A DNA stretch of 64,000 nt from Patescibacteria group bacterium (GTDB taxonomy: Bacteria; Patescibacteriota; Minisyncoccia; Phycocordibacterales; Phycocordibacteraceae). The notes below the pieces were generated by a model. It saw only the letters and a program-made list of their open reading frames with translations. It was not told the DNA's origin and ran no database searches. Positions 7,637-26,238 of this stretch are shown in pieces. The position numbers and the translations under genes are program-made. Within the stretch, counting starts at the first letter, position 1. Each line of letters starts with the position of its first letter. Location: positions 618,394 to 682,393 of the forward strand of contig JAIELV010000001.1 in NCBI GenBank assembly GCA_019752595.1, given 5' to 3'.

Positions 7637-7665
7637 TTGACACAAATATACGTTTGATATACAGT
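7637..7665 (+). promoter_or_regulatory. Promoter of TrmB paralog 1 (TTGACA-N17-TACAGT), near-leaderless
   Basis: TTGACA at 7637-7642, and the ATG lies only 8 nt after the -10 box. TrmB paralog 2 at 11583 has the same architecture. Confidence 0.5.
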
Positions 7666-7673
7666 GGATTCTG

Positions 7674-8447
7674 ATGAAAAAAACAGAAAATAAACTTAAA
7701 GAATCACTGATTTCTTTGGGTCTTTCCGACAAAGAAGCATCTGTATACTTGGCGCTTTTGGAGCTTGGCCGCTCAACAGTTTCAAAAATTTCCCGTAAAG
7801 CAGACGTGAATCGTGCAACGGGGTACGTTATCTTGGATTCTTTGGTAAACATGGGTCTTGCGCATATATCTGGCAAAGAACCGAAGCAGGAATACACAGC
7901 TGAATCCCCCGATAACCTCGTGCGTCTGTTACGCGAAAGGAAAACAAAAGCGGAAACGGCTTTGGTGACCGCGGAAGCGCTCGCACTGGAATTGAAATCT
8001 ATACAGAAAAAAGAAGACCGTCCTCAGGTTAAGTTCTATGAGGGTATTGAAGGAATGAAACAGGTGTATGAAGATACCCTCACTTCATCTGAAACGATAC
8101 GCGCCTACGCTGCGGTTGAAGATGTGCACAGCTTATTCGGAAATTATTTTCCTACGTATTACAAGCGCCGCGCCGGAAAAGGCATCAGTATCCGTGCAAT
8201 ATTCCCAGACACCCCCGCATCAATTGAGCGCGCAAAGCTAGACTCGGAGGAAGCGCGAGAGAGTGTGCTTGTGCCGAAAGAAAAATATGAATTCCATCCC
8301 GAAATCAACATCTATGACAACAAAATAATGATTGCCTCATGGCGCGAAAAGCTCGGCATTATTATTGAGAGTAAAGAAATTGCCGAAGCAATGAAAACTG
8401 TTTTTGAACTTTCTTGGATCGGAGCGAAGCACGTTGCGCGCAAATAA
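7674..8447 (+). CDS. TrmB-family transcriptional regulator (paralog 1)
   Basis: 257 aa with an N-terminal winged HTH (LGLSDKEASVYLALLELGRSTVSKISRKADVNRATGYVILDSL) and a C-terminal TrmB-type domain. It shares long identical blocks with paralog 2, including QVKFYEGIEGMKQVYEDTLT and WREKLGIIIESKEIA. Confidence 0.8.
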   Translation: MKKTENKLKESLISLGLSDKEASVYLALLELGRSTVSKISRKADVNRATGYVILDSLVNMGLAHISGKEPKQEYTAESPDNLVRLLRERKTKAETALVTAEALALELKSIQKKEDRPQVKFYEGIEGMKQVYEDTLTSSETIRAYAAVEDVHSLFGNYFPTYYKRRAGKGISIRAIFPDTPASIERAKLDSEEARESVLVPKEKYEFHPEINIYDNKIMIASWREKLGIIIESKEIAEAMKTVFELSWIGAKHVARK

Positions 8448-8478
8448 ATACTACCTGCAGTCTTGTAGCATGTCATCA

Positions 8479-8494
8479 TGTTACCATGGTAACA
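8479..8494. promoter_or_regulatory. 16-bp perfect palindrome TGTTACCATGGTAACA (copy a)
   Basis: Lies in the convergent intergenic space between TrmB-1 and the ABC ATPase. A related copy sits at 19667-19682 in the YerC/sigma promoter region. Confidence 0.4.
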
Positions 8495-8532
8495 CGGTGG
8501 CACCTCACAGGTATGCAGTAGGTTGTCTACTA

Positions 8533-9333
8533 CTATCGAGCAATCATTTCCTCTTCGAAGTCAGCAACTTTTGCCTCTAACTTCTCTACAACCCCTGCAA
8601 TAGTCAATTTCTTTTTTCCCTCACCTGACGCTTCAAACACCACCCGCCCTCGTTCAAGCATTATCAGCCTGTCGCCGTACTTAATTGCGTGATGGATGTT
8701 GTGAGTAATCATGAGTGTCGTTATGTTGTGTTTCCGCACCTCATTGTCAGTCATCCGTAATATTTGTTCAGAAACCCGCGGATCAAGTGCGGCGGTATGC
8801 TCGTCAAGCAATAACAGTTTTGGTTTAATCATGGTCGCCATCAGAAGCGCGACTGACTGCTTTTGCCCTCCTGAAAACAGACTCATCTCGGTTTCAAGTC
8901 TTTTTTCAAGCCCAATTCCGAGAGGCTTCAAAAGTGCCTCAAATTCTGGCCGCCATTCTTTCCGCACTCCTTTCCCTAAGCCTGCTCCGACAACGCGCGC
9001 CTTAGCCATTGCAAGATTTTCCGCAAGCGTCATTGAGGGAACAGTGCTCTCATTCGGATTCTGACGTACGCGAGACACATATGCAGCACGGACGTGCTCG
9101 TCTAAATGGTCAATGCGTGCACCATCAAGAATTATTTTCCCCGAAGTAAGTTCAAGGGAGCCCGCAATCGCATTAAATAGTGACGATTTTCCTGCGGCAT
9201 TTGAGCCGACAATAGTGACGAATTCCCCGCGCTTCAAAGAAAGCGACATATGGTCGAGTGCAGTCACCTCCCCCGCAGTAGCAGGGTTGTATATCTTATA
9301 TAAATTATCGAGTATTAAATATTCGTTTTCCAT
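8533..9333 (-). CDS. ABC transporter ATP-binding protein (COG1101-like)
   Basis: 266 aa with Walker A GSNAAGKSS, an ABC signature LFSGGQKQ and Walker B LLLLDEHTAALD. Confidence 0.88.
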   Translation of the reverse strand: MENEYLILDNLYKIYNPATAGEVTALDHMSLSLKRGEFVTIVGSNAAGKSSLFNAIAGSLELTSGKIILDGARIDHLDEHVRAAYVSRVRQNPNESTVPSMTLAENLAMAKARVVGAGLGKGVRKEWRPEFEALLKPLGIGLEKRLETEMSLFSGGQKQSVALLMATMIKPKLLLLDEHTAALDPRVSEQILRMTDNEVRKHNITTLMITHNIHHAIKYGDRLIMLERGRVVFEASGEGKKKLTIAGVVEKLEAKVADFEEEMIAR

Positions 9334-10189
9334 ATGTTATGTACCGCTCTCCGTCTTTCGCCATTATTGCGAAAATAACAATGAGCGCGGTAATTAGCTT
9401 CAAATCGGTTCCAGCAAGCCCCAACCGAAGCGCGATATTTACTATGAACTGATAGAGTACGGAACCGACAATTATCGCGAGCGTTACGGTGGCAATTTTT
9501 CGGGACGAAAGTATTGCTTCGCCGAGCATCAAGGCCGCGAGCCCGAGAATAATGTTACCAATACCCATGTTCACATCCGCAAAGCCCATGTATTGAGCAA
9601 ACAGCGCGCCCGCAAGCCCCATCAAGCCGTTACTTATAACAACACCTGCAAATTTCGTAACATTCGGATTGATGCCGAACGAACGCGCCGTTGCCTCATT
9701 GTCACCAGTTGCGCGCACCTGTAGTCCAAAACCTGTCGAGAGAAACCAATCAATAAAAAATTTTGCAAAGACAACAATAGCAAATAGGACTGCAATGAGT
9801 GCGACATGATTGAACGGCGCCTGCATAACGCCCATAACCGTTTCCTGATTTAGTAGCGAAAGATTGGGGCCATCCATCAGTCGAAGATTTATAGTATAGA
9901 GAATGCCGAGCGCAAGGATGCCCGAAAGAATCTTCTCTATACCCAAGACTGTGTGCAGAAATGCCGTCAGAACGCCCGCGCAAAGCCCTGCCACAAGCCC
10001 GACAAGAAGCGCCGTTTCACCGGGCACTCCGCTCTGTATCGCGAGAGCCGCGGCGGCGGCTCCGGTTACGAAACTTCCATCTACAGAAAGATCGGGGTAA
10101 TTGAGAACTCGAAACGTGAGAAAAACCCCAAGCACAATGAGCCCAGTTAAAAGCCCGAGCTCAAGGGAGATGAAAACTAAATCAACCAT
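9305..10189 (-). CDS. ABC transporter permease (COG4120-like)
   Basis: 294 aa and polytopic. It overlaps the downstream ATPase gene in the usual operonic way. Confidence 0.8.
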   Translation of the reverse strand: MVDLVFISLELGLLTGLIVLGVFLTFRVLNYPDLSVDGSFVTGAAAAALAIQSGVPGETALLVGLVAGLCAGVLTAFLHTVLGIEKILSGILALGILYTINLRLMDGPNLSLLNQETVMGVMQAPFNHVALIAVLFAIVVFAKFFIDWFLSTGFGLQVRATGDNEATARSFGINPNVTKFAGVVISNGLMGLAGALFAQYMGFADVNMGIGNIILGLAALMLGEAILSSRKIATVTLAIIVGSVLYQFIVNIALRLGLAGTDLKLITALIVIFAIMAKDGERYITYGKRIFNTR

Positions 10190-10207
10190 TACCCTTCAGG
10201 ATACAAC

Positions 10208-11191
10208 CTACTCGTAGACTTTTTTCGCACTTGCCAGGACGTCTCCGGGAATGGTAACCCCAAGCATTTTTGCGGTTGTTGTGTTCAGGAAGACATCGGC
10301 GTCGGTAACACCAAGGACAGGGATGCCTGCGGGAGCCTCACCATTAAGAACGCGGATTGCGATTTCTGCCGTACGAACACCTACATATTTGTAATTCGTG
10401 CCGAGCGTTGCAAGTGCGCCTTTTTCAACACCCGATTCATCAAGAGAAATCAGAGGTTTCTTACCGTCAAGCGCAACCTTAATTAACGATTCTTGAGCAG
10501 CAACAACGGTATTGTCGGGGAGCATGTAGAAAGCATCAATTTTTGAAACAAGAGAACGTGCCGCCTGGTTTACTTCCGTCCCAGTATTTGCGGGTGCCGT
10601 TATAATTTCAAATCCGAACTCTTTTGCATACTTTTGAGCTTGCTCGAGTGCGAAGCGCGCATTCGCCTCACCTGGGTTATAGACAATGCCGATTTTCTTT
10701 GCAGTTGGAACCAGTTTTTTCAAGAGCTCCAGATGTTCTCTGTAAAGTGTGATGTCTGAAGTCCCAGTAACATTTGCGCCTGGGGCTTCGTTTGAGACAA
10801 CTAACCCTGCAGTTACCGGGTCAGTAACGGCACCAAAAACAATCGGCGAATCTTTAATCAAATTCACCACCGCCTGGCTTGCCGGAGTTCCTAAAGGCAT
10901 GAAAATGTCGTAACCTGAGGATGCAAACTTCTGCGCTATTGCCGCATTTGCACTGTTATCACCCTGCGCGTTTTGAATGTCGTAGGTAATTGTCTCGCCC
11001 TCAACGTACCCAGCGTTTGCAAATCCTTCTTTAATGCCTGAGATCACCATGTCAAAAACAGGGTGCGAGGTAATTTGTGAAATACCAACAGTTATCGGCG
11101 CGGACGGGCCCGTATCTTTTTTTGATGTCGCAAACCAGGCAAGGCCACCAAGGACCACAACGGCAACGAGAACCCAAATAATGTTTTTCAT
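10208..11191 (-). CDS. ABC transporter substrate-binding protein (COG2984-like)
   Basis: 327 aa with an N-terminal signal/anchor and a periplasmic-binding-protein fold. It is the first gene of the three-gene operon. Confidence 0.8.
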   Translation of the reverse strand: MKNIIWVLVAVVVLGGLAWFATSKKDTGPSAPITVGISQITSHPVFDMVISGIKEGFANAGYVEGETITYDIQNAQGDNSANAAIAQKFASSGYDIFMPLGTPASQAVVNLIKDSPIVFGAVTDPVTAGLVVSNEAPGANVTGTSDITLYREHLELLKKLVPTAKKIGIVYNPGEANARFALEQAQKYAKEFGFEIITAPANTGTEVNQAARSLVSKIDAFYMLPDNTVVAAQESLIKVALDGKKPLISLDESGVEKGALATLGTNYKYVGVRTAEIAIRVLNGEAPAGIPVLGVTDADVFLNTTTAKMLGVTIPGDVLASAKKVYE

Positions 11192-11267
11192 AAATTGAAT
11201 TAATCTTTAATTAGCTCGATACCTTATATATACATATTACTCCAGGGCTTCGGCGGATAAAGTCCGA

Positions 11268-11504
11268 TTAAATTCCACGCCCTTTTGGCCACATGCGTCG
11301 CTCTGGAAGAGAAGCGACGGCTTCCTCTCCAAAACGAGCAACAAGTTGTTCCTTCAATTGAACACTGAGGGCATCTACGCTGATTGGCTTAACGATTGGG
11401 GCGCCTTCCCTAGCCTCGGCGGCGTGAGCACTTTTTTTCATAAAGTTTTTACTTAAGTAACTAAAGTCTATGCCGAATATATCATTCCAATAATAACTTG
11501 TCAA
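11268..11504 (-). CDS. Possible small leader ORF upstream of the ABC operon (or non-coding leader)
   Basis: A 78-aa ORF lies inside a ~250-nt 5' leader. The leader is transcribed from a TTGACA-N17-TATATT promoter at about 11485-11513 on the minus strand. Confidence 0.2.
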   Translation of the reverse strand: MTSYYWNDIFGIDFSYLSKNFMKKSAHAAEAREGAPIVKPISVDALSVQLKEQLVARFGEEAVASLPERRMWPKGRGI

Positions 11505-11582
11505 TATTTTTCGTCAATTTTTCCTTTATTTGTATTTAGTTGAATAGAAATCTTGTATTTTTAATATTTTTGTGGAATTAAA

Positions 11583-11611
11583 TTGACACAATCTCATGGC
11601 TCTAGTACACT
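11583..11611 (+). promoter_or_regulatory. Promoter of TrmB paralog 2 (TTGACA-N17-TACACT), near-leaderless
   Basis: TTGACA at 11583-11588 and TACACT at 11606-11611, with the ATG at 11619. Confidence 0.5.
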
Positions 11612-11618
11612 CTCAATC

Positions 11619-12407
11619 ATGGGTAAACGAGAGGAACAATCCTTAGACACATTGCTTTCTTTCGGGCTCTCGAAGAAAGAAGCCGGAGTGTACATTGCGC
11701 TCCTCGGACACGGGCGCGGAACGGTATCCCAAATCTCACGAAAAGCCGGAATCAACAGAACGACGGGGTACGACATCCTCGCTTCTTTAGCACGGGCGGG
11801 TCTTGTGCGTGTTTCCGGGAAAGAACCGAAACAAGAATATGTAGCTGAATCTCCGGATAATTTGTTGAAACTTCTGAATCGCCGCCTCAGAGAGACTGAA
11901 GAAAGTATACACAAAGCGAAAGATTTTATTCCTGAATTAAAATCACTCCATAAAATTGACGACAGACCGCAAGTAAAATTTTACGAAGGGATTGAAGGGA
12001 TGAAACAAGTATACGAAGATACGCTCACCGCAACGGAGACGATACATGCGTACGCAAATTACGATGATATGCATGCGACCTTGGGCGACTATTTTCCTTC
12101 GTACTACAAACGACGCGCGGCAAAGGGTGTATACGCAATCGGAATCGTACCTGCAACTCCACTCGCGAAAGAGCGCGCTGCAAAAAACACTGAAGAAAAT
12201 CGTGAACTAACGCTTACCCCGCTGGAAAAATTCAACATCTCGCCTGAGATAGATATATATGACAACAAAACGGTTTTTGTTTCGTGGCGGGAAAAACTCG
12301 GCATTATTATTGAGAGCAAAGAAATAGCAGACGCAATGAAAAACATTTTTACACTTGCACAAGGAGAAGCGAAGCGTTTAGAGAAAGAAGCGGGGCTTAA
12401 TCTCTAG
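11619..12407 (+). CDS. TrmB-family transcriptional regulator (paralog 2)
   Basis: The ORF-track start at 11583 is the TTG of the -35 box. The ATG at 11619 (MGKREEQSLDTLLSFGLSKKEAGVYIALL) aligns with the paralog-1 start. Confidence 0.8.
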   Translation: MGKREEQSLDTLLSFGLSKKEAGVYIALLGHGRGTVSQISRKAGINRTTGYDILASLARAGLVRVSGKEPKQEYVAESPDNLLKLLNRRLRETEESIHKAKDFIPELKSLHKIDDRPQVKFYEGIEGMKQVYEDTLTATETIHAYANYDDMHATLGDYFPSYYKRRAAKGVYAIGIVPATPLAKERAAKNTEENRELTLTPLEKFNISPEIDIYDNKTVFVSWREKLGIIIESKEIADAMKNIFTLAQGEAKRLEKEAGLNL

Positions 12408-17743: not shown

Positions 17744-19021
17744 TTATTCGGAATCAGTATCCGCATCTTTTTCTTGTTGCACCCTTTCAGGAGGTGCAAG
17801 TTCACCAAGTTCCGATACAGGTTCCTGTATCTGCACAGGGATCGGTAACGTATTTTTAATAACAGCGTTCTCATTGAAGTCGCCACTAGCACCCTCGCGC
17901 GGTATGACTTTCAGTCGCGACTTCTGAAATGCCTTCAAAAAGACCGAGAGTTTCACGGAAATCGTAGCAGCTTTTCTGTATGAGGCGAGCGCAAGAGCAA
18001 AATCATTCTGAGACACTGCTTGATCGGCAGAAGACATAAGTGTTTTGATTTCAGAAAGTTCCCCATTCACGCGCATGCGTGCATCTTCATCAATTCTCTC
18101 TTCGAGGCGCTCAAACAGTCGCGATGCATTTTGAAATTCTTTTTTTGCAGAGCGTGCAAATCTTTGAACCACTTCTTCGCTCACGGTGGCTATTTGTACG
18201 GGAGGCGCTTCCTCAGCTACAGATGCTGCACGCGCTTTCATTGATGATCCTTCAGCCACCCCTGTGTCCATAGCGACAGACATCATCATGGTAGTAGCTT
18301 CAGGCGCTGGCTCGGAAAGTACAGCAACTGTGGCAGACGGTATGGGCACGCCACTCACCCGCTCAGTGACCCGCGCAAGACGGGCAATTTTTGTTCGTAC
18401 TTGATCTTTTAAGTTGCGAACTTTTTCAGGGTGCTCAACATCTGCGAGTACTACTTCGTGTGCCAAAAGTGTATTTTCAAAACGCGTGGCAACATCCGCA
18501 GCAATTGAAGCTTCTGAGGCTTCTAAGCGTTCCACATCAACTACAAAACGTTCAGCATGTTTTTCAAAACGATTTTCAAGCTCTTCCTTCGCTTCGTCGG
18601 TTAATGCATCATCCGAAGCAAGTTTTGCTGCTTCTTCCAAACGGCGCTCTGCCAATTCTGCGTTCCACAATGCTTTTGACTCGGACGAAACGGAAAGTAC
18701 TGCGACAACGGGTTCATTTACTTCTACCTTGATAGGGTAGAGCGCATCCCCTGGCAAAGCATTTTCCGCTGCAAAACTCACACCAGCACCCGAAAACAAA
18801 ATACCCGCCACCAGAAGGAGCGCAACTGATTTACGCGAAAACGCGTACAGTGACAAAAGCATGTACGAGATCGGCGCACGCCGATCCAAGGGCACGTTTC
18901 GAAGAGGCTTCATTGCGATATATTCAGAAAGCACACGTTTCATGCGCTCGCGCTCGATGTCTGAGAGAGACACATGCTCCCCGCTTTTTCGTATGTACTC
19001 TGTGAGGTTTATTTTTTTCAT
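17744..19021 (-). CDS. Putative anti-sigma factor, membrane protein with a DUF5667-like periplasmic domain
   Basis: 425 aa with one TM helix (VALLLVAGILFSGAGVSFA), a PGDALYPIK motif and long coiled-coil, acidic stretches. It overlaps the upstream ECF sigma gene by 4 nt (ATGA). Confidence 0.55.
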   Translation of the reverse strand: MKKINLTEYIRKSGEHVSLSDIERERMKRVLSEYIAMKPLRNVPLDRRAPISYMLLSLYAFSRKSVALLLVAGILFSGAGVSFAAENALPGDALYPIKVEVNEPVVAVLSVSSESKALWNAELAERRLEEAAKLASDDALTDEAKEELENRFEKHAERFVVDVERLEASEASIAADVATRFENTLLAHEVVLADVEHPEKVRNLKDQVRTKIARLARVTERVSGVPIPSATVAVLSEPAPEATTMMMSVAMDTGVAEGSSMKARAASVAEEAPPVQIATVSEEVVQRFARSAKKEFQNASRLFERLEERIDEDARMRVNGELSEIKTLMSSADQAVSQNDFALALASYRKAATISVKLSVFLKAFQKSRLKVIPREGASGDFNENAVIKNTLPIPVQIQEPVSELGELAPPERVQQEKDADTDSE

Positions 19022-19545
19022 GATGTTGCCAACTGGTCCTTAAGCTTTGCTACCCCCCGATGAATCCTGACTGAGACCGCGTTCTCTGTGGAGCCGGTCA
19101 TGCGAGCTATTTCTTTCGGGGAAAAGCCTTCCACGTACCTGAGAGTCACTACAGTTCTGTACTCCTCCGAAAGTTCCGTAATCGCATCTTTCACTTTATT
19201 CAGCAAATCTTTCTCATCCATACTTTCTTCAACTTCCAAAATACTGCCCTCTGCAAACATGGCTTCAGTGGCACTAGGATTATCTTCCAATTTTTTATCG
19301 AGAGATTCAGTCTTTGACCTTCGGTATTCGTCAATAATCAGGTTATTCAAAATTCTGAATAGGAATGATTTAGGACTTCTGACGTCCCCGCCACCACGCA
19401 CGTAGTCCCACGCTTTGATAAACGTGTCTTGCGTTAAGTCATAGGCTCTTTCGCGGTCAGGAAGACGGAAGAAAGCATGACGAAAAAGCGCATCTGCATG
19501 CGTGTTGTAAGCGGCCAGGAATTCCTCTTCCTTGTTCCCTTTCAT
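19018..19545 (-). CDS. ECF-type RNA polymerase sigma factor (sigma-70 family, regions 2 and 4)
   Basis: The ORF-track start at 19701 is unlikely. The start at MKGNKEEEFL (19545) gives a ~175-aa sigma-24-like protein with region 2 (DLTQDTFIKAWDY) and a region-4 HTH (PKEIARMTGSTENAVSVRIHRG). Confidence 0.75.
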   Translation of the reverse strand: MKGNKEEEFLAAYNTHADALFRHAFFRLPDRERAYDLTQDTFIKAWDYVRGGGDVRSPKSFLFRILNNLIIDEYRRSKTESLDKKLEDNPSATEAMFAEGSILEVEESMDEKDLLNKVKDAITELSEEYRTVVTLRYVEGFSPKEIARMTGSTENAVSVRIHRGVAKLKDQLATS

Positions 19546-19666
19546 AGGCCGTATATGTAGACGAGTATACCCCGCCTTTCTTTCTGTCTTCACACGAAAA
19601 AAATTCCTGCCCGCAAGACGGTGTAGCTGTACCCCCCCCGCAACACAAAAGAGTATCGTGGTATCG

Positions 19667-19682
19667 TGGTACCATGGTAACA
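19667..19682. promoter_or_regulatory. Palindrome TGGTACCATGGTAACA (copy b), abutting the -35 box of the yerC-like promoter
   Basis: Shares the ACCATGGTAACA core with copy a at 8479-8494. It is preceded by the tandem GTATCGTG GTATCGTG. Confidence 0.4.
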
Positions 19683-19684
19683 TG

Positions 19685-19713
19685 TTGACACGTAGAACCA
19701 TGTGCGATATAAT
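19685..19713 (+). promoter_or_regulatory. Consensus sigma70 promoter TTGACA-N17-TATAAT for the TrpR-like gene
   Basis: TTGACA at 19685-19690 and TATAAT at 19708-19713. Confidence 0.6.
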
Positions 19714-19719
19714 GAACGG

Positions 19720-20025
19720 GTGAAGAATAAAGTAAAAACCGACACCGAGCTGAACCGAAAGCGCATGGAGCGCCTGTATGATGCTCTGCTTTCACTTAAA
19801 ACCCGCGAAGAATCTGCTGCATTTTTGCGTGACTTGTGCACTGTCTCGGAACTTGAAGCACTTTCAGAGCGTTTGGCAATTGCTGAACGCGTGTCGAAAG
19901 ACGAATCGTATCTTTCTATTGCAAGCGATTTAGGAGCATCAACAACTACTGTTACTCGCGTAGCGCATTGGCTGAACCATGGAATGGGCGGCTACCGCGC
20001 GGTTTTAAATCGTTTGAAAAAATAA
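19720..20025 (+). CDS. TrpR-like protein, YerC/YecD family
   Basis: Aligns with Bacillus YerC across LYDALLSL...LRDLCTVSELEALSERLAIA...ASTTTVTRV. The GTG at 19720 lies 6 nt after the -10 box. Alternative starts are 19702 (ORF track) and the ATG at 19765. Confidence 0.7.
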   Translation: MKNKVKTDTELNRKRMERLYDALLSLKTREESAAFLRDLCTVSELEALSERLAIAERVSKDESYLSIASDLGASTTTVTRVAHWLNHGMGGYRAVLNRLKK

Positions 20026-20049
20026 TTTCAAAAGAACTCCGTTGCACCA

Positions 20050-20075
20050 GCCGCCCCGACTCGGGCGGTTTTTTA
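20050..20075 (+). terminator. Rho-independent terminator
   Basis: ccgccc-cgactc-gggcgg followed by tttttt. Confidence 0.7.
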
Positions 20076-21521: not shown

Positions 21522-23051
21522 CTACTCGTACTCAATTGTCGCAGGGGGTTTCTGGGTGATATCAAAAAAGACACGGTTCACTCCTTTCACTTCGTTCACG
21601 ATTCGGCTTGAAATCCTCTCCAGTAAATCGGTGGGGATTTTGTGCCAATCGGCCGTCATGCCGTCGACCGAATCAACAGCTCGAAGAGCAATTGCGTAAT
21701 CATACGTGCGGGCATCGCCCATCACGCCGACAGTCTTAATCGGAAGAAGTGCGGCGAACGCCTGCCAGATTTTTTCGTACTCCCCTGCTGATTTCAGCTC
21801 TTCCTGATAAATCGCATCGGCTTCGCGCAGAATTTTCAATCGGTCTTCGGTTACTTCGCCTACAATGCGAATACCAAGCCCTGGCCCTGGGAAAGGGTGG
21901 CGCCACACCATATCGTGCGGAATACCTAAACCTTCGCCCACGCGGCGCACTTCGTCTTTATACAAATCGCGGAGTGGCTCAATGACACCAAGCTTCATCT
22001 TTTCAGGCAACGTAAGGTTATGATGACTTTTTATTTTATCCGCATGTTTCCCTACTGCAGCCGATTCGATGCGGTCAGGATAAATTGTTCCTTGTGCAAG
22101 ATATTTCACAGGAAACTTTTGCAACTCCTCACCGAGGGCTTTCTCAAACACTTCCACAAACGCGTGCCCAATGATTTTGCGTTTCTCTTCGGGGTCAGTA
22201 ACGCCCTTGAGATTAGCGAGAAACATCTGCGAGGCGTCGATTACGTGAAGCCCTGTAAAGCCGCGCGACTTCAAAGACGCAGAAACGCTTTCTACTTCCC
22301 CTTTACGCAAAAGGCCGTGGTCCACGAACACCGCATGAAGCTGATCGCCAATTGCTTGATGGAGGAGCGTTGCGGCGACGAGTGAATCCACGCCTCCCGA
22401 AATACCAACCACCACATGGTCTGTACCGATTTTTTCTTTCAGGTCGGAAATTATGCCTGCCGAAACATCGCTCATGTTCCAGTTTTTCTCCGCTATTACG
22501 ATATCGAATACGAAGTTCGAAAGAATGTTTGTGCCGTGCACGGTATGTGTGACTTCAGGATGGAACTGAATCCCGTAGAAGCCTCGCTTCTCGTCAGCGA
22601 ATCCTGAAAGTTCACAGCTTTTTGACGAAGCGGTTTTTACAAATCCAGTCGGGAGTTTTGTTGCCTGATCGCCGTGCGAAAACCACACCACTTCTTTTGA
22701 TTCCAGCGTATTAAAAAGCGCATCTTTTTTGAGAATGTCTAGATTTTCTTTCCCGTACTCTTTTACGTAACCACCCTTCACTTCGCCCCCCAACATGTGC
22801 GCCATGAGCTGAAGGCCGTAGCAAATACCAAGAACGGGAACACCAAGTTCGAAAATACCTTTGTCAGGCAGCGGGCCGTTTTCAAGAACAGAGTGACCAG
22901 AACCTGAAAGAATAATTCCTTTCGGGTTCAATGCCTGTATTTCAGAAAGCGACGCATCACCATGCAAAATCTCGGCCTTTACGCCGAGGTCGCGCACTCT
23001 TCGTGCAATAAGGTGAGCAAATTGCCCGCCGAAGTTGAGAACTACAATCAT
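21522..23051 (-). CDS. guaA: GMP synthase (glutamine-hydrolysing)
   Basis: 509 aa with a class-I glutamine amidotransferase domain (catalytic Cys in GICYG), a PP-loop SGGVDS and a C-terminal dimerisation domain. Confidence 0.95.
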   Translation of the reverse strand: MIVVLNFGGQFAHLIARRVRDLGVKAEILHGDASLSEIQALNPKGIILSGSGHSVLENGPLPDKGIFELGVPVLGICYGLQLMAHMLGGEVKGGYVKEYGKENLDILKKDALFNTLESKEVVWFSHGDQATKLPTGFVKTASSKSCELSGFADEKRGFYGIQFHPEVTHTVHGTNILSNFVFDIVIAEKNWNMSDVSAGIISDLKEKIGTDHVVVGISGGVDSLVAATLLHQAIGDQLHAVFVDHGLLRKGEVESVSASLKSRGFTGLHVIDASQMFLANLKGVTDPEEKRKIIGHAFVEVFEKALGEELQKFPVKYLAQGTIYPDRIESAAVGKHADKIKSHHNLTLPEKMKLGVIEPLRDLYKDEVRRVGEGLGIPHDMVWRHPFPGPGLGIRIVGEVTEDRLKILREADAIYQEELKSAGEYEKIWQAFAALLPIKTVGVMGDARTYDYAIALRAVDSVDGMTADWHKIPTDLLERISSRIVNEVKGVNRVFFDITQKPPATIEYE

Positions 23052-23102
23052 GCTTGAGTATATCCTTGGAGCGGGAGTTTTACAAATTTACCCCTCGACG
23101 AA

Positions 23103-23339
23103 CTAGTGTGTTCTGGGATTTTGTTCTTGTATATCTTCACTATCATTTAGATCCGCTTCCCTTTTATATTTCAGGTAGTCCCGCTCCCATTGCGGTATTT
23201 CGTGGGGCATTCTTTTATATTCGTCGCCGTCATCCCAACCTCCTTCGGCGCGTACAAATGGAACTCTAGTTAGAGGCCGGCCAAAAGACTTTTCTACGTG
23301 AGTGTGGTCCATACCGACATCATACCAAAAACCCGCCAT
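23103..23339 (-). CDS. Hypothetical small protein
   Basis: 78 aa, charged, with no known domain. Confidence 0.3.
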   Translation of the reverse strand: MAGFWYDVGMDHTHVEKSFGRPLTRVPFVRAEGGWDDGDEYKRMPHEIPQWERDYLKYKREADLNDSEDIQEQNPRTH

Positions 23340-23354
23340 GAAGGCGAGTAAGTA

Positions 23355-23831
23355 TTACCGTTGCAATCTTTCTATTTCGCTTTTGTATCGCGCCATTTGC
23401 TCCTCTGAGAAAGGTAAGTCCGTATCCAAAGAATCCCTAAGTCCCACTGCCTCAATGACGGCATAACTCTGACTCATCCTTCCTGTTGCCATCCTAGCTG
23501 TGGCACGATGATTGAAACGCCAAAAGGCATCCGAATTTAAATCAAAAGTCAGCCCCGAACTTCTTGCTTTGTCAGCTCGCTTATAAGCAACCTGTCTCGC
23601 CTTGTCTGCAATGCGTGCCCATTTCTGAGTCTCACTGACAGCTTCAACTCCGCGCGCGACAACTCTCGTTACTCGGCTAGGCAAATGACCCCACGAAGTT
23701 TCGTCTTGTAAGGCAGCAGCGGCTTCCGCGAAGAACTGAGGGGTTCTTTTATCGTCATCAACGTGCAACCTTAAAGCAAGTTCATGTTTCAACATATAAC
23801 GCATTATAAACCTTAATTTAGGAAAAGTCAA
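23355..23831 (-). CDS. Hypothetical protein
   Basis: 158 aa with no recognised domain. Confidence 0.4.
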   Translation of the reverse strand: MTFPKLRFIMRYMLKHELALRLHVDDDKRTPQFFAEAAAALQDETSWGHLPSRVTRVVARGVEAVSETQKWARIADKARQVAYKRADKARSSGLTFDLNSDAFWRFNHRATARMATGRMSQSYAVIEAVGLRDSLDTDLPFSEEQMARYKSEIERLQR

Positions 23832-23891
23832 GCCCGCCGTCTCGCTCTACGAGATAGCTATATATTGAAAAACCCGCCATAGGGTGCGGGT

Positions 23892-24122
23892 TTAGTGGGA
23901 TTTCTTTTTCTCCTCTTTCTCCTTTCTTTTCCTCAGTTCTGCCTCGATTTCCCATTCTCTAAACTTTTCGGGCGGGATATATACACCTCGTGAAGCGCCT
24001 CTATCGTCGTGTTCAACCTGCACGGGAAGCCGAAGAAGTGGAGAATACTCATTCCGTCTGCGATCCCTTAAAGGACCATAATTGACTGGGTCGCCACCTT
24101 CAAAGTGTTGTTCGTGATTCAT
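23892..24122 (-). CDS. Hypothetical small basic protein
   Basis: 76 aa with a Lys/Glu-rich C-terminus. A minus-strand terminator at 23867-23893 follows. Confidence 0.3.
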   Translation of the reverse strand: MNHEQHFEGGDPVNYGPLRDRRRNEYSPLLRLPVQVEHDDRGASRGVYIPPEKFREWEIEAELRKRKEKEEKKKSH

Positions 24123-24129
24123 ATTTAAT

Positions 24130-25491
24130 TTAACTCCACCTTTTCACTATACGCTTAGTTTTTTCAGCGGCAACTCCTATGTAGGAAGCGGGGTTTTTGA
24201 GAATTCCTTTTTGCTTATCAGTCATTTTGTCCAAATACGGTTTCATTTCTGAATCGGCAAACGCAACGTCTTCGAGTGACTTCCCTTCTTTCTGCGCGCT
24301 GAGTGTGAGATTTCTAACTTTTTCGTGCGCATCGGGGTGCCCCATCGAGGCAAGCATGATGTACAAAGGCTCGGCCGCAATCATGCCTTTCTGCATCGCC
24401 ATATTTGCTTCAAGCCTCGGCTTGTCGACAGAAAGTTTCGCCATTGTTTTCGAAAGCCTATTTGCCATCGAAACGGTGTAGGCGATTGTCTCTCCATAGG
24501 TTCTGCCAGATGCAGAATTGGTCAAATCGCGCTGGTGTTCAGAGATCTGGTCCATGAATACTGTCACCATTCTCGGCACAATAATTTTCCAAAGGCTTTT
24601 TGCGTTCTCAAAGTTAATTGGATTTCGTTTCTGCGGCATCGTAGACGAGCCAACTTGTGACTTTTCAAACTCCTCCCCTACTTCTCCGATTTCTGTTCGC
24701 TGTAACTGACGCATGTCGTCTGAAAGTTGCGCCATTATTCCTGCCGCAATCGTTGTCTCCGCCAAAAGTCGAACCATTGGTTCAGCCTGCGTGACCTGTG
24801 TTGCATGCTCCACGGGCTCGAGATTCATTTCTGCCAAAACGTCTTTTTCGAAAGCTTCAGGGTCATCAAAGAAAAGCGATGATGCGTTGTATGCGCCAAC
24901 AGCGCCTGAAAACTTCCCTTTCATCTCTCCCGCAAGAGCTTCAAGTGCCACGATCGACTGCCCAAGGCGGCTGACATAGCCTGCAACAACGTAGCCGAAT
25001 GTAAGCGGGACCGCGTGCTGGCCATGCGTGCGCCCGACCTGCACCGTTTCTGCTTCCCTTTCCGCAATTCCTACAAGAATCTTCAAGAGTGATTTCAAAG
25101 ACGGCACGAGTGCTTTCAGTGTTGCGTCTTTAAATCGAGCCGCGTTTGCGGTATCAGAGATGTCGTAGCTGGTTGCGGTCATGTGGACGTAGGGCTTTGC
25201 TGCGTCCGAAACTTTCAAACGAATGACGTTTACCATTGCGCGGATATCGTGTTTCACCTTGTCTTCTTCTTCGTAGACTTCTGCGGGAGTAATCGTCTGT
25301 ACGGCGGATTCAATTTCTTTCAAAACGTCTGCTGAACAAATTTTTCTCTTATGAAGTGCTTTTACGAGCGCAAGTTCAACGCTGAGCTTGTATTTGAGGT
25401 ACGCATTATCTGAGAGGTACTTCGCAACCTCTTCATCCCAGTACCGATAATCAACAGGAGCGATACTATCAAACGCATTTGAAGGTCTCAT
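24130..25491 (-). CDS. purB: Adenylosuccinate lyase
   Basis: 453 aa with the fumarate-lyase signature GSSTMPQKRN. Confidence 0.93.
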   Translation of the reverse strand: MRPSNAFDSIAPVDYRYWDEEVAKYLSDNAYLKYKLSVELALVKALHKRKICSADVLKEIESAVQTITPAEVYEEEDKVKHDIRAMVNVIRLKVSDAAKPYVHMTATSYDISDTANAARFKDATLKALVPSLKSLLKILVGIAEREAETVQVGRTHGQHAVPLTFGYVVAGYVSRLGQSIVALEALAGEMKGKFSGAVGAYNASSLFFDDPEAFEKDVLAEMNLEPVEHATQVTQAEPMVRLLAETTIAAGIMAQLSDDMRQLQRTEIGEVGEEFEKSQVGSSTMPQKRNPINFENAKSLWKIIVPRMVTVFMDQISEHQRDLTNSASGRTYGETIAYTVSMANRLSKTMAKLSVDKPRLEANMAMQKGMIAAEPLYIMLASMGHPDAHEKVRNLTLSAQKEGKSLEDVAFADSEMKPYLDKMTDKQKGILKNPASYIGVAAEKTKRIVKRWS

Positions 25492-26051: not shown

Positions 26052-26238
26052 ATTTTACTGTTTCACGTGAAACGTGTCTGAAAGCAAAAGTATGATAATA
26101 GCATTATTTAAAGCCATATTTTTAAGAAATTGCCTGTTTTTTGTGCCCTATATAAGTTGTCTTTTATACACATACACACAGGTTTGTCCACAGTTTTAGA
26201 CAATTTCACGTGAAACGCGTTTCTTATGAAACATGAGG

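Follow-up and report, generated by a model that had tools for sequence, protein, structure and literature searches.

Two nearly identical palindromes in a Patescibacteria genome raise the question of which protein recognizes them and to what end. They lie in a stretch of 64,000 nucleotides (GenBank assembly GCA_019752595.1, contig JAIELV010000001.1, positions 618,394 to 682,393), referred to in its full length as the window. One copy, a, occupies the spacer between a TrmB-family regulator gene and an adenosine triphosphate (ATP)-binding cassette (ABC) importer operon; the other, b, adjoins the promoter of yerC, which encodes a small protein of the Trp repressor family. An earlier note on this DNA had proposed that the motif could be an autoregulatory operator of a TrpR-like protein, and that it would link that protein to the transporter. 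The comparisons described here suggest that both palindromes are probably operator arrays of the YerC/YecD-family repressor encoded at 19720-20025. The palindromes themselves, as read from the sequence, are as follows.

8479-8494, no strand: copy a, the perfect 16-base-pair (bp) palindrome TGTTACCATGGTAACA
19667-19682, no strand: copy b, TGGTACCATGGTAACA, with 7 of 8 palindromic pairs

Both 16-mers are present where the earlier note had placed them, and a single base separates them. The 12-bp core that they were said to have in common requires amendment, as the named 12-mer, TTACCATGGTAA, is exact in copy a only and copy b reads GTACCATGGTAA. The underlying identity is nonetheless extensive: the exact string common to both is the 13-mer TACCATGGTAACA, and when the minus strand of copy a is aligned with the plus strand of copy b, 24 of 26 positions are identical (CGTG[T/G]TACCATGGTAACATG[A/T]TGACA). 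Beyond this 26-bp stretch, the flanks of the two copies are unrelated. Each copy carries the box, a TG, (A/T)TGACA and a -10-like hexamer at N17.

Perfect 12-bp palindromes occur in the window at chance level (17 observed, 17.5 expected), and CATG, CCATGG and GGTACC are found at their expected frequencies, which rules out avoidance or enrichment of restriction sites. The sequence TACCATGGTA, for which approximately 0.0 occurrences are expected, is present twice. The signal is carried by the specific sequence and its 8-bp phasing, not by palindromy alone. As a separate matter of composition, GTAC is strongly over-represented across the window, with 206 occurrences against the 120 +/- 12 expected from dinucleotide content.

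The putative recognition element is a 20-bp palindrome, C(A/G)TGTTA-N6-TAACA(T/C)G, and both sites read C(A/G)TG(T/G)TA-CCATGG-TAACA(T/C)G, with a TTA-N6-TAA core. It can alternatively be read as tandem self-complementary 8-bp units, TGnTAnCA, with a C-R-Y-G tetramer every 8 bp; the tetramers run CATG tcat CATG ttac CATG gtaa CACG in array a and CGTG gtat CGTG gtac CATG gtaa CATG ttga CACG in array b. For the first description, a weight matrix was derived from boxes that precede yerC at five loci of related Patescibacteria, with the window's own sites left out. For the second, a run was defined as at least two consecutive 8-bp units, each agreeing with TGnTAnCA at 5 or more of 6 positions. The features found in this way are listed below.

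8463-8494, no strand: array a, four units, TTGTAGCA, TGTCATCA, TGTTACCA and TGGTAACA (32 bp; unit scan)
8477-8496: copy a as a 20-bp box of YerC/HisR type, CATGTTACCATGGTAACACG, 33.9 bits, the top score of the window (matrix)
8469-8488: box in array a offset by 8 bp, 24.1 bits (matrix)
19659-19690, no strand: array b, four units, TGGTATCG, TGGTACCA, TGGTAACA and TGTTGACA (32 bp), with the -35 hexamer inside the last (unit scan)
19665-19684: copy b as a 20-bp box, CGTGGTACCATGGTAACATG, 32.1 bits (matrix)
19657-19676 and 19673-19692: offset boxes in array b, 23.2 and 23.1 bits, the latter over the -35 hexamer (matrix)

When the 64 kb are scanned with this relatives-only matrix, copies a and b score 33.9 and 32.1 bits and the offset boxes 23-24 bits, while the next unrelated site reaches 5.8 bits and the highest score in 100 shuffles is 13.9 bits. 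The same scan finds no further copy of the Patescibacteria box in the window beyond arrays a and b. Runs of at least two units occur only at 8463-8494 and 19659-19690, with four units each, and 200 shuffled sequences contain no run of three or more. The count of TACCATGGTA, the matrix scores and the unit-run scan together exclude chance as the source of the similarity between a and b.

The protein most directly implicated by the position of copy b is the product of the following gene.

19720-20025, plus strand: yerC/hisR-like gene, 101 amino acids, GTG start, Trp_repressor family (gene call and profiles)

This protein passes the TIGR02531 (yecD_yerC) model with 79.6 bits against a cutoff of 42.2 and scores 76.1 bits against PF01371 (cutoff 27), but it fails the TrpR equivalog model TIGR01321, at 26.7 bits against a cutoff of 67.25. 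The closest solved structures, PDB 3FRW, 3G1C and 3KOR, are of HisR type and match at E-values from 1e-18 to 2e-17; 3G1C, matched at 5e-18, is an E. eligens protein treated as HisR (PMC9413887). The product is a member of the YerC/YecD family and not a TrpR equivalog. The Patescibacteria and Gaiellales proteins that have the box in common do not differ in their recognition helix, GASTTTVTRVAHWL. The Firmicutes helix, GASTATISRVNRSL, differs, as does the Firmicutes box, cacTTTA-N6-TAAAgtg (PMC9413887). Elsewhere in the family, loci L002, L005, L006, L009, L010 and similar ones from Paceibacteria and their relatives carry a perfect palindrome, GTATCACTGTAGTACTACAGTGATAC, between the -10 element and the yerC start, and Gracilibacteria and Peregrinibacteria loci have GTGTTAATACGTTAAAACA-type repeats upstream of yerC. 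To judge from these sequences, the operators of the YerC family diverge fast.

Conservation of the box upstream of yerC orthologs, which the earlier note had suggested as a check, was followed in 80 yerC loci of species-representative genomes and several contigs of close relatives. The motif is found there in the syntenic Patescibacteria and in approximately 45 actinobacterial loci. In all, matrix matches of at least 13 bits in the 619 kb fetched fall at 50 loci, every one of them before yerC or its transcription unit; in L084 and L085, the match sits before an open reading frame (ORF) that precedes yerC. That ORF (L084 9551-9982, L085 3268-3699) encodes 143 amino acids, has no Pfam match and lies between the box-bearing promoter and yerC, and in both loci a second, weaker box, CGTGTTAACATAGGAACATG, overlaps the yerC start codon. 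About 45 of the 50 loci belong to Thermoleophilia/Gaiellales, where the box reads CATGTTA(G/A)CGTGCTAACATG, in the frame CATGTTA-N6-TAACATG. A gene of the His_biosynth family (PF00977) is divergent upstream of yerC in 49 actinobacterial loci; that of L027 is separated from yerC by 32 bp, which the box occupies.

Among the Patescibacteria, the syntenic relatives have in common the gene order trypsin, DUF5667, extracytoplasmic function (ECF) sigma factor, divergent yerC, guaA and purB, and the box lies directly upstream of yerC in seven close loci. In L081 and L083, the box, C(A/G)TGTTAxCATGxTAxCAxG, immediately adjoins the end of TTGACA-N17-TATCAT, and in L081 some 12 nucleotides separate it from the yerC start codon that follows. 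Alignments and raw sequence show promoter and then box likewise in L082, L001 and L084/L085. This placement is the classical position of an autorepressor operator. The layout of the window, in which the box is followed by TTGACA-N17-TATAGT and a leaderless ATG, is found in L104, whose YerC is 94% identical, and L001 and L083 hold both promoter arrangements. In total, the window and three relatives have the box abutting and overlapping the -35 element of a putatively leaderless promoter, and four relatives have it, in some cases additionally, after the -10 element of a promoter farther upstream. The purine genes guaA and purB (21522-25491 in the window) are conserved downstream of yerC in L081, L082 and L084, and no box was found near them.

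Given that copy b also lies in the spacer that yerC shares with an ECF sigma gene, and copy a 29 bp past a TrmB-family gene with two further TrmB paralogs in the window, the boxes might instead be bound by one of these nearby regulators, a TrmB-family protein or the ECF sigma system. Across phyla, however, the box accompanies yerC where neither gene is adjacent, the Gaiellales neighbor being the His_biosynth-family gene. Conversely, L086, L087 and L088 keep TrmB1 (and L087 the ECF sigma gene as well), have no yerC in the fetched stretch and have no box. The sigma gene also has an invariant upstream block of its own, approximately 80 bp from the array. Recognition by a regulator other than YerC is thus highly improbable. 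Copy b is almost certainly the autoregulatory operator of yerC, as judged from conservation upstream of yerC and from the HisR/YerC architecture of the box, and in this respect the proposal of an operator for the TrpR-like protein is supported.

The immediate surroundings of array b include the following features.

19685-19713, plus strand: yerC promoter, TTGACA (19685-19690)-N17-TATAAT (19708-19713), 12/12 (promoter scan)
19653-19668, plus strand: tandem GTATCGTG GTATCGTG, a duplication of 8 bp by which the array gains a unit (sequence)
20049-20070, plus strand: terminator-like hairpin and T-run 3' of yerC (terminator scan)
19018-19548, minus strand: ECF sigma gene, divergent from yerC (gene call)
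17744-19021, minus strand: DUF5667 gene, following the ECF sigma gene (gene call)

The consensus promoter described in the earlier note as abutting copy b is confirmed and is the sole 12/12 match within 14 kb; the contact is closer than abutment, with the -35 hexamer inside the last unit of the array. The divergent sigma gene and the tandem before copy b are likewise as described, GTATCGTG being single-copy in the closest relative, L104. The main box b is centered approximately 45 bp upstream of the yerC start. Because the -10 element ends 6 nucleotides before the GTG, the N-terminus MKN... is kept in homologs and the ATG of L104 is equally spaced, the yerC messenger RNA (mRNA) is probably leaderless. 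Given the hairpin and T-run, yerC is probably monocistronic. A -10 element ending 6-8 nucleotides before the start recurs at three regulator genes, the TrmB-family genes at ATG 7674 and ATG 11619 and yerC at GTG 19720, with promoters of the form TTGACA-N17-TA(C/T)nnT (7637-7676, 11583-11621 and 19685-19722), which suggests that in this organism regulators are commonly translated from leaderless mRNAs.

Upstream of array b, the promoter that relatives keep has been replaced in this genome by a C8 run (19632-19639) and unrelated sequence; homopolymer runs of this kind are prone to slippage. Further toward the sigma gene, a block reading TGTAGACGAGTATACC..GCC.TTCTTTC (approximately 19556-19584) is nearly invariant among the window, L081, L082, L001, L083 and L104. 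Its minus-strand reading, GAAAGAA...CGTCTACA, resembles an ECF-type promoter that would serve the sigma gene itself. Control of the ECF sigma gene from array b is unlikely, because this gene's own conserved block is some 80 bp from the array.

The nearest characterized system is that of HisR. B. subtilis YerC has been renamed HisR, a TrpR-family histidine repressor whose regulon is known from Firmicutes, Actinobacteria, Synergistetes and Proteobacteria (Ashniev et al. 2022, BMC Genomics, PMC9413887). The 20-bp HisR box, cacTTTA-N6-TAAAgtg, is that of Firmicutes, Actinobacteria and Synergistetes and varies by lineage in other phyla; R. gnavus (Ruminococcus gnavus) HisR binds its 20-bp box in vitro in a histidine-dependent manner (PMC9413887). 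Members of the regulon are the his operon and the transporters hisXYZ* or yuiF; hisR is frequently among them, and autoregulation is predicted for about half of the genomes in that study (PMC9413887). The system in the window has in common with HisR the families PF01371 and TIGR02531, the relative 3G1C, the frame xxxxTTA-N6-TAAxxxx over 20 bp and a site before the regulator's own gene. The actinobacterial orthologs have a histidine-biosynthesis-family gene beside the box, and the actinobacterial form of the box, CATGTTAGCGTGCTAACATG, shares a central TTAGCGTGCTA with Coriobacteriia HisR sites such as cactttagcgtgctactgta (PMC9413887).

The differences from HisR are equally clear. The outer arms are CATG/CGTG here instead of CAC(T)/(A)GTG, with a conserved central C-R-T-G; the recognition helix is TTTVTRVAHWL instead of TATISRVNRSL; each site forms part of a longer array, of four units phased at 8 bp; and the second site, instead of preceding a his or transporter operon, is flanked by the 3' ends of two converging genes. 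Within the 64 kb, no box precedes a histidine biosynthesis or uptake gene. The host belongs to the Patescibacteria, a phylum outside the coverage of the HisR study (PMC9413887), and a library search of the literature found no paper joining HisR and Patescibacteria. On the strength of the sequence comparison, the box is a lineage variant of the HisR/YerC box.

The arrays also invite comparison with E. coli TrpR, whose dimers bind operators in tandem at 8-bp offsets. TrpR, which acts on trpEDCBA, aroH and trpR, is likewise a small, dimeric, all-helical repressor; it belongs to the same Pfam family and regulates its own gene. Its operators vary in length and could hold differing numbers of dimers, and in both systems a 20-bp palindrome contains a 4-bp palindromic tetramer every 8 bp. 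The likeness to the trp operator drawn in the earlier note holds for this architecture, but not for the sequence: the tetramers are CATG, CGTG or CACG (CRTG) here and CTAG there, the arms are TGTTA and not GTACT, and the sites lack the GNACT and CTAG elements of the E. coli consensus, TGTAcTnGTnnACnAgTACA (quoted in PMC9413887). Tandem occupancy of the arrays in the window is a prediction from their sequence periodicity.

Copy a poses the more difficult question, since it is not located at a promoter of an annotated gene. Its neighborhood is as follows.

7674-8447, plus strand: TrmB-family regulator gene, widely conserved in Patescibacteria, with its stop 29 bp before box a (gene call)
8533-11191, minus strand: TrpX-like ABC importer operon, with its stop 36 bp from box a (gene calls)
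10208-11191, 9305-10189 and 8533-9333, minus strand: PF04392 binding protein, permease and ATPase genes of this operon (gene calls)
8448-8476, minus strand: promoter-like element, ATGACA (8476-8471)-N17-TAGTAT (8453-8448), 9/12 (promoter scan)

Array a lies inside the 85-bp spacer between the converging stop codons of the TrmB-family gene and the ABC ATPase gene, and the earlier note was correct to place it where the ABC operon ends, though the TrmB-family gene ends there equally. The minus-strand element beside the array has a box-to-hexamer register identical to that of the yerC promoter, and an RNA started from it, at approximately 8441, would enter the TrmB-family gene from its 3' end in antisense orientation.

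It is conceivable that copy a is the stem of a bidirectional terminator or of an RNA-stabilizing hairpin, with its likeness to copy b coincidental. The spacer RNA does form a long imperfect hairpin on the palindrome (-30.8 kcal/mol on the plus strand and -29.6 on the minus strand, z approximately -2), which on the minus strand, that of the ABC operon, is followed by a U-rich tail, AUUUAUUUG, and the terminator scan found no other terminator-like site in the spacer. However, copy a itself fails the criteria of that scan, and the z-scores are modest, with 5-6 of 200 shuffles folding equally well. A hairpin also leaves unexplained both the 33.9-bit match to a matrix built from yerC operators of other genomes and the 8-bp phasing that extends beyond the stem core. 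It is quite improbable that copy a is nothing but such a stem, but terminator and operator roles are mutually compatible, and the spacer DNA might contribute to termination.

If copy a is instead a YerC box, as its sequence predicts with high confidence, its history and use have still to be considered. The ABC operon occupies a slot between two TrmB-family genes (window 8533-11582) that is variable among relatives: a radical-SAM gene of 539-556 amino acids is found there in L084, L086 and L088, neither gene type in L087, and the ABC operon in L099 and in the window. This pattern suggests gene replacement at the slot, possibly by horizontal transfer. The nearest relative with the TrmB/ABC layout is L099, in which the TrmB-family protein is 89.7% and the ATPase 77% identical, and its converging spacer measures 292 bp and holds an unrelated 97-amino-acid ORF. 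That ORF was considered as a degenerate yerC paralog and rejected (hhalign probability 0.03; no Pfam match). Because the locus is variable and L099 is without a box, array a appears to be young and lineage-specific.

Copy a could bind YerC without regulatory output, as a neutral recent copy or remnant of a YerC-controlled promoter that rearrangement of the spacer left behind, or at most as a titration site. The rearranged locus, the contrast between the ORF-bearing spacer of L099 and the 85-bp spacer with its box, the end of the a/b similarity right after the -35-like hexamer and the absence of a gene downstream of copy a on either strand all accord with such an origin. On the other hand, the four-unit array is intact and contains a perfect 16-bp palindrome that outscores the autoregulatory site, while decay would bring mismatches. 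At the free positions, copy a is also no closer to copy b than to the boxes of relatives, and a recent duplication of b is therefore not an obvious origin. We consider a binding site without output somewhat unlikely.

Several observations weigh against the reading of both palindromes as YerC operator arrays, and most of them bear on copy a. It precedes no gene on either strand; the converging spacer of L099 contains no box (top score, -10.5); and 9/12 promoter matches such as the minus-strand element are as common in shuffled sequence (17 found, 16 expected). The offset matrix scores are partly a by-product of the internal periodicity of the motif. In other classes of Patescibacteria, the same or nearly the same helix is accompanied by a different yerC-upstream palindrome, GTATCACTGTAGTACTACAGTGATAC, and for this reason the correspondence of helix to box is not strict. 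No histidine genes were noticed near either box, and histidine as the effector is an analogy only.

The proposed link of the repressor to the ABC transporter fared less well than the operator itself. The box is downstream of the operon and not before it, the promoter region (11192-11620) contains no box (top score, -8.5), and the box is missing from L099. When the binding protein, permease and ATPase were searched by tblastn against 85 yerC loci, none of the yerC genes had a homolog of the binding protein within 3 kb. Metagenomes scanned with this protein gave 10 loci, of which only L089 (68% identity) is close; none of the 10 has a box, and the ATPase relatives L099-L103 have no box either. 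It may nevertheless be that the pairing has some meaning, as the HisR regulon of histidine auxotrophs shrinks to hisR and an importer (PMC9413887). By this analogy, the regulon of an auxotroph would be expected to be reduced to a HisR-type repressor and an amino-acid importer, and YerC control of the TrpX-like importer can be put forward as a hypothesis.

The importer resembles transporters of the TrpXYZ type (TC 3.A.1.34) in its three-gene order and protein families. Its binding protein is related to PDB 6HNI, 3LKV and 3LFT, which come from C. difficile (CD0873), V. cholerae and S. pneumoniae and have aromatic amino acids as ligands. It matches PF04392 clearly (272 bits) and the TrpX model NF041285 at 263.2 bits, but the latter score is below the equivalog cutoff of 390. 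Amino-acid repressors are known to act on such importers at the promoter, whereas the box lies behind the last gene here. A further palindrome in this region, the perfect TTACTTAAGTAA at 11449-11460, lies between the ABC promoter (minus strand; -35 at 11504, -10 ending at 11476) and a 57-amino-acid ORF (11441-11268) that precedes the binding-protein gene. It was rejected as a weak YerC box, having only TTAC/GTAA arms, no CRTG positions and a score far below threshold. In L089 and L100, the region before the binding-protein gene lacks this palindrome, which may be a different operator or a chance occurrence.

From the sequence, its statistics, its conservation and the family membership of the product, we infer a model of binding, repression, tandem occupancy and effector response. 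Two or more YerC dimers could sit on each 32-bp array in 8-bp register, as in E. coli TrpR. A repressor across array b would block RNA polymerase at the -35 region of the yerC promoter, because the -35 hexamer lies within the last unit, TGTTGACA, and is covered by the offset box at 19673-19692. In relatives, the box would also act directly after the -10 element of the upstream promoter, an arrangement lost in this genome. Array a would be a second, equally strong site that arose recently in this lineage, within the converging TrmB/ABC spacer. Our best guess is that it may govern the promoter-like element beside it on the minus strand, which points antisense into the TrmB-family gene; protein bound there may in addition be a roadblock between the two converging transcription units. 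We have modest confidence in an output by either route. The effector is likely an amino acid, and the analogy with HisR and the actinobacterial gene context suggest histidine. A more ambitious version, which seems unlikely, is that YerC has been rewired in this amino-acid-auxotrophic, ultrasmall bacterium: in addition to self-repression at array b, it would form an effector-dependent roadblock on array a, gate the antisense promoter there, or do both, and by either means would couple amino-acid status, from the 3' end, to the expression of the TrmB-family regulator or of the importer.

Another pair of palindromes in the window belongs to a different context. Two copies of (G)TTTCACGTGAAAC(G), at 26060-26073 and 26203-26223, lie 143 bp apart in an AT-rich intergenic region of 350 bp between a UPF0102 gene and a transfer RNA cluster. 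The second is overlapped by GAAACGCGTTTC, a DnaA-box-like TTGTCCACA occurs at approximately 26185, and the minimum of the window's cumulative GC skew is near 26 kb. A replication origin was considered, and no dnaA was found among the neighboring genes.

Few pairs of transcription factor and operator have been assigned in the Patescibacteria, the candidate phyla radiation (CPR), whose members are mostly uncultured and dependent on imported metabolites. One such pair can now be put forward with good comparative support, as an extension of the HisR/YerC regulon concept to Patescibacteria and Thermoleophilia. The identical recognition helix in the two phyla that have the box in common points to a recognition code. 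The orphan array and the exchange of promoters, with the box after the -10 element in relatives and on the -35 element here, appear to be small, clean examples of operator and promoter turnover. Apart from the orphan array, YerC would be an ordinary autoregulated repressor. If array a is functional, it would represent an unusual control point at the 3' end of genes, of a kind that to our knowledge has not been described for TrpR-family proteins.

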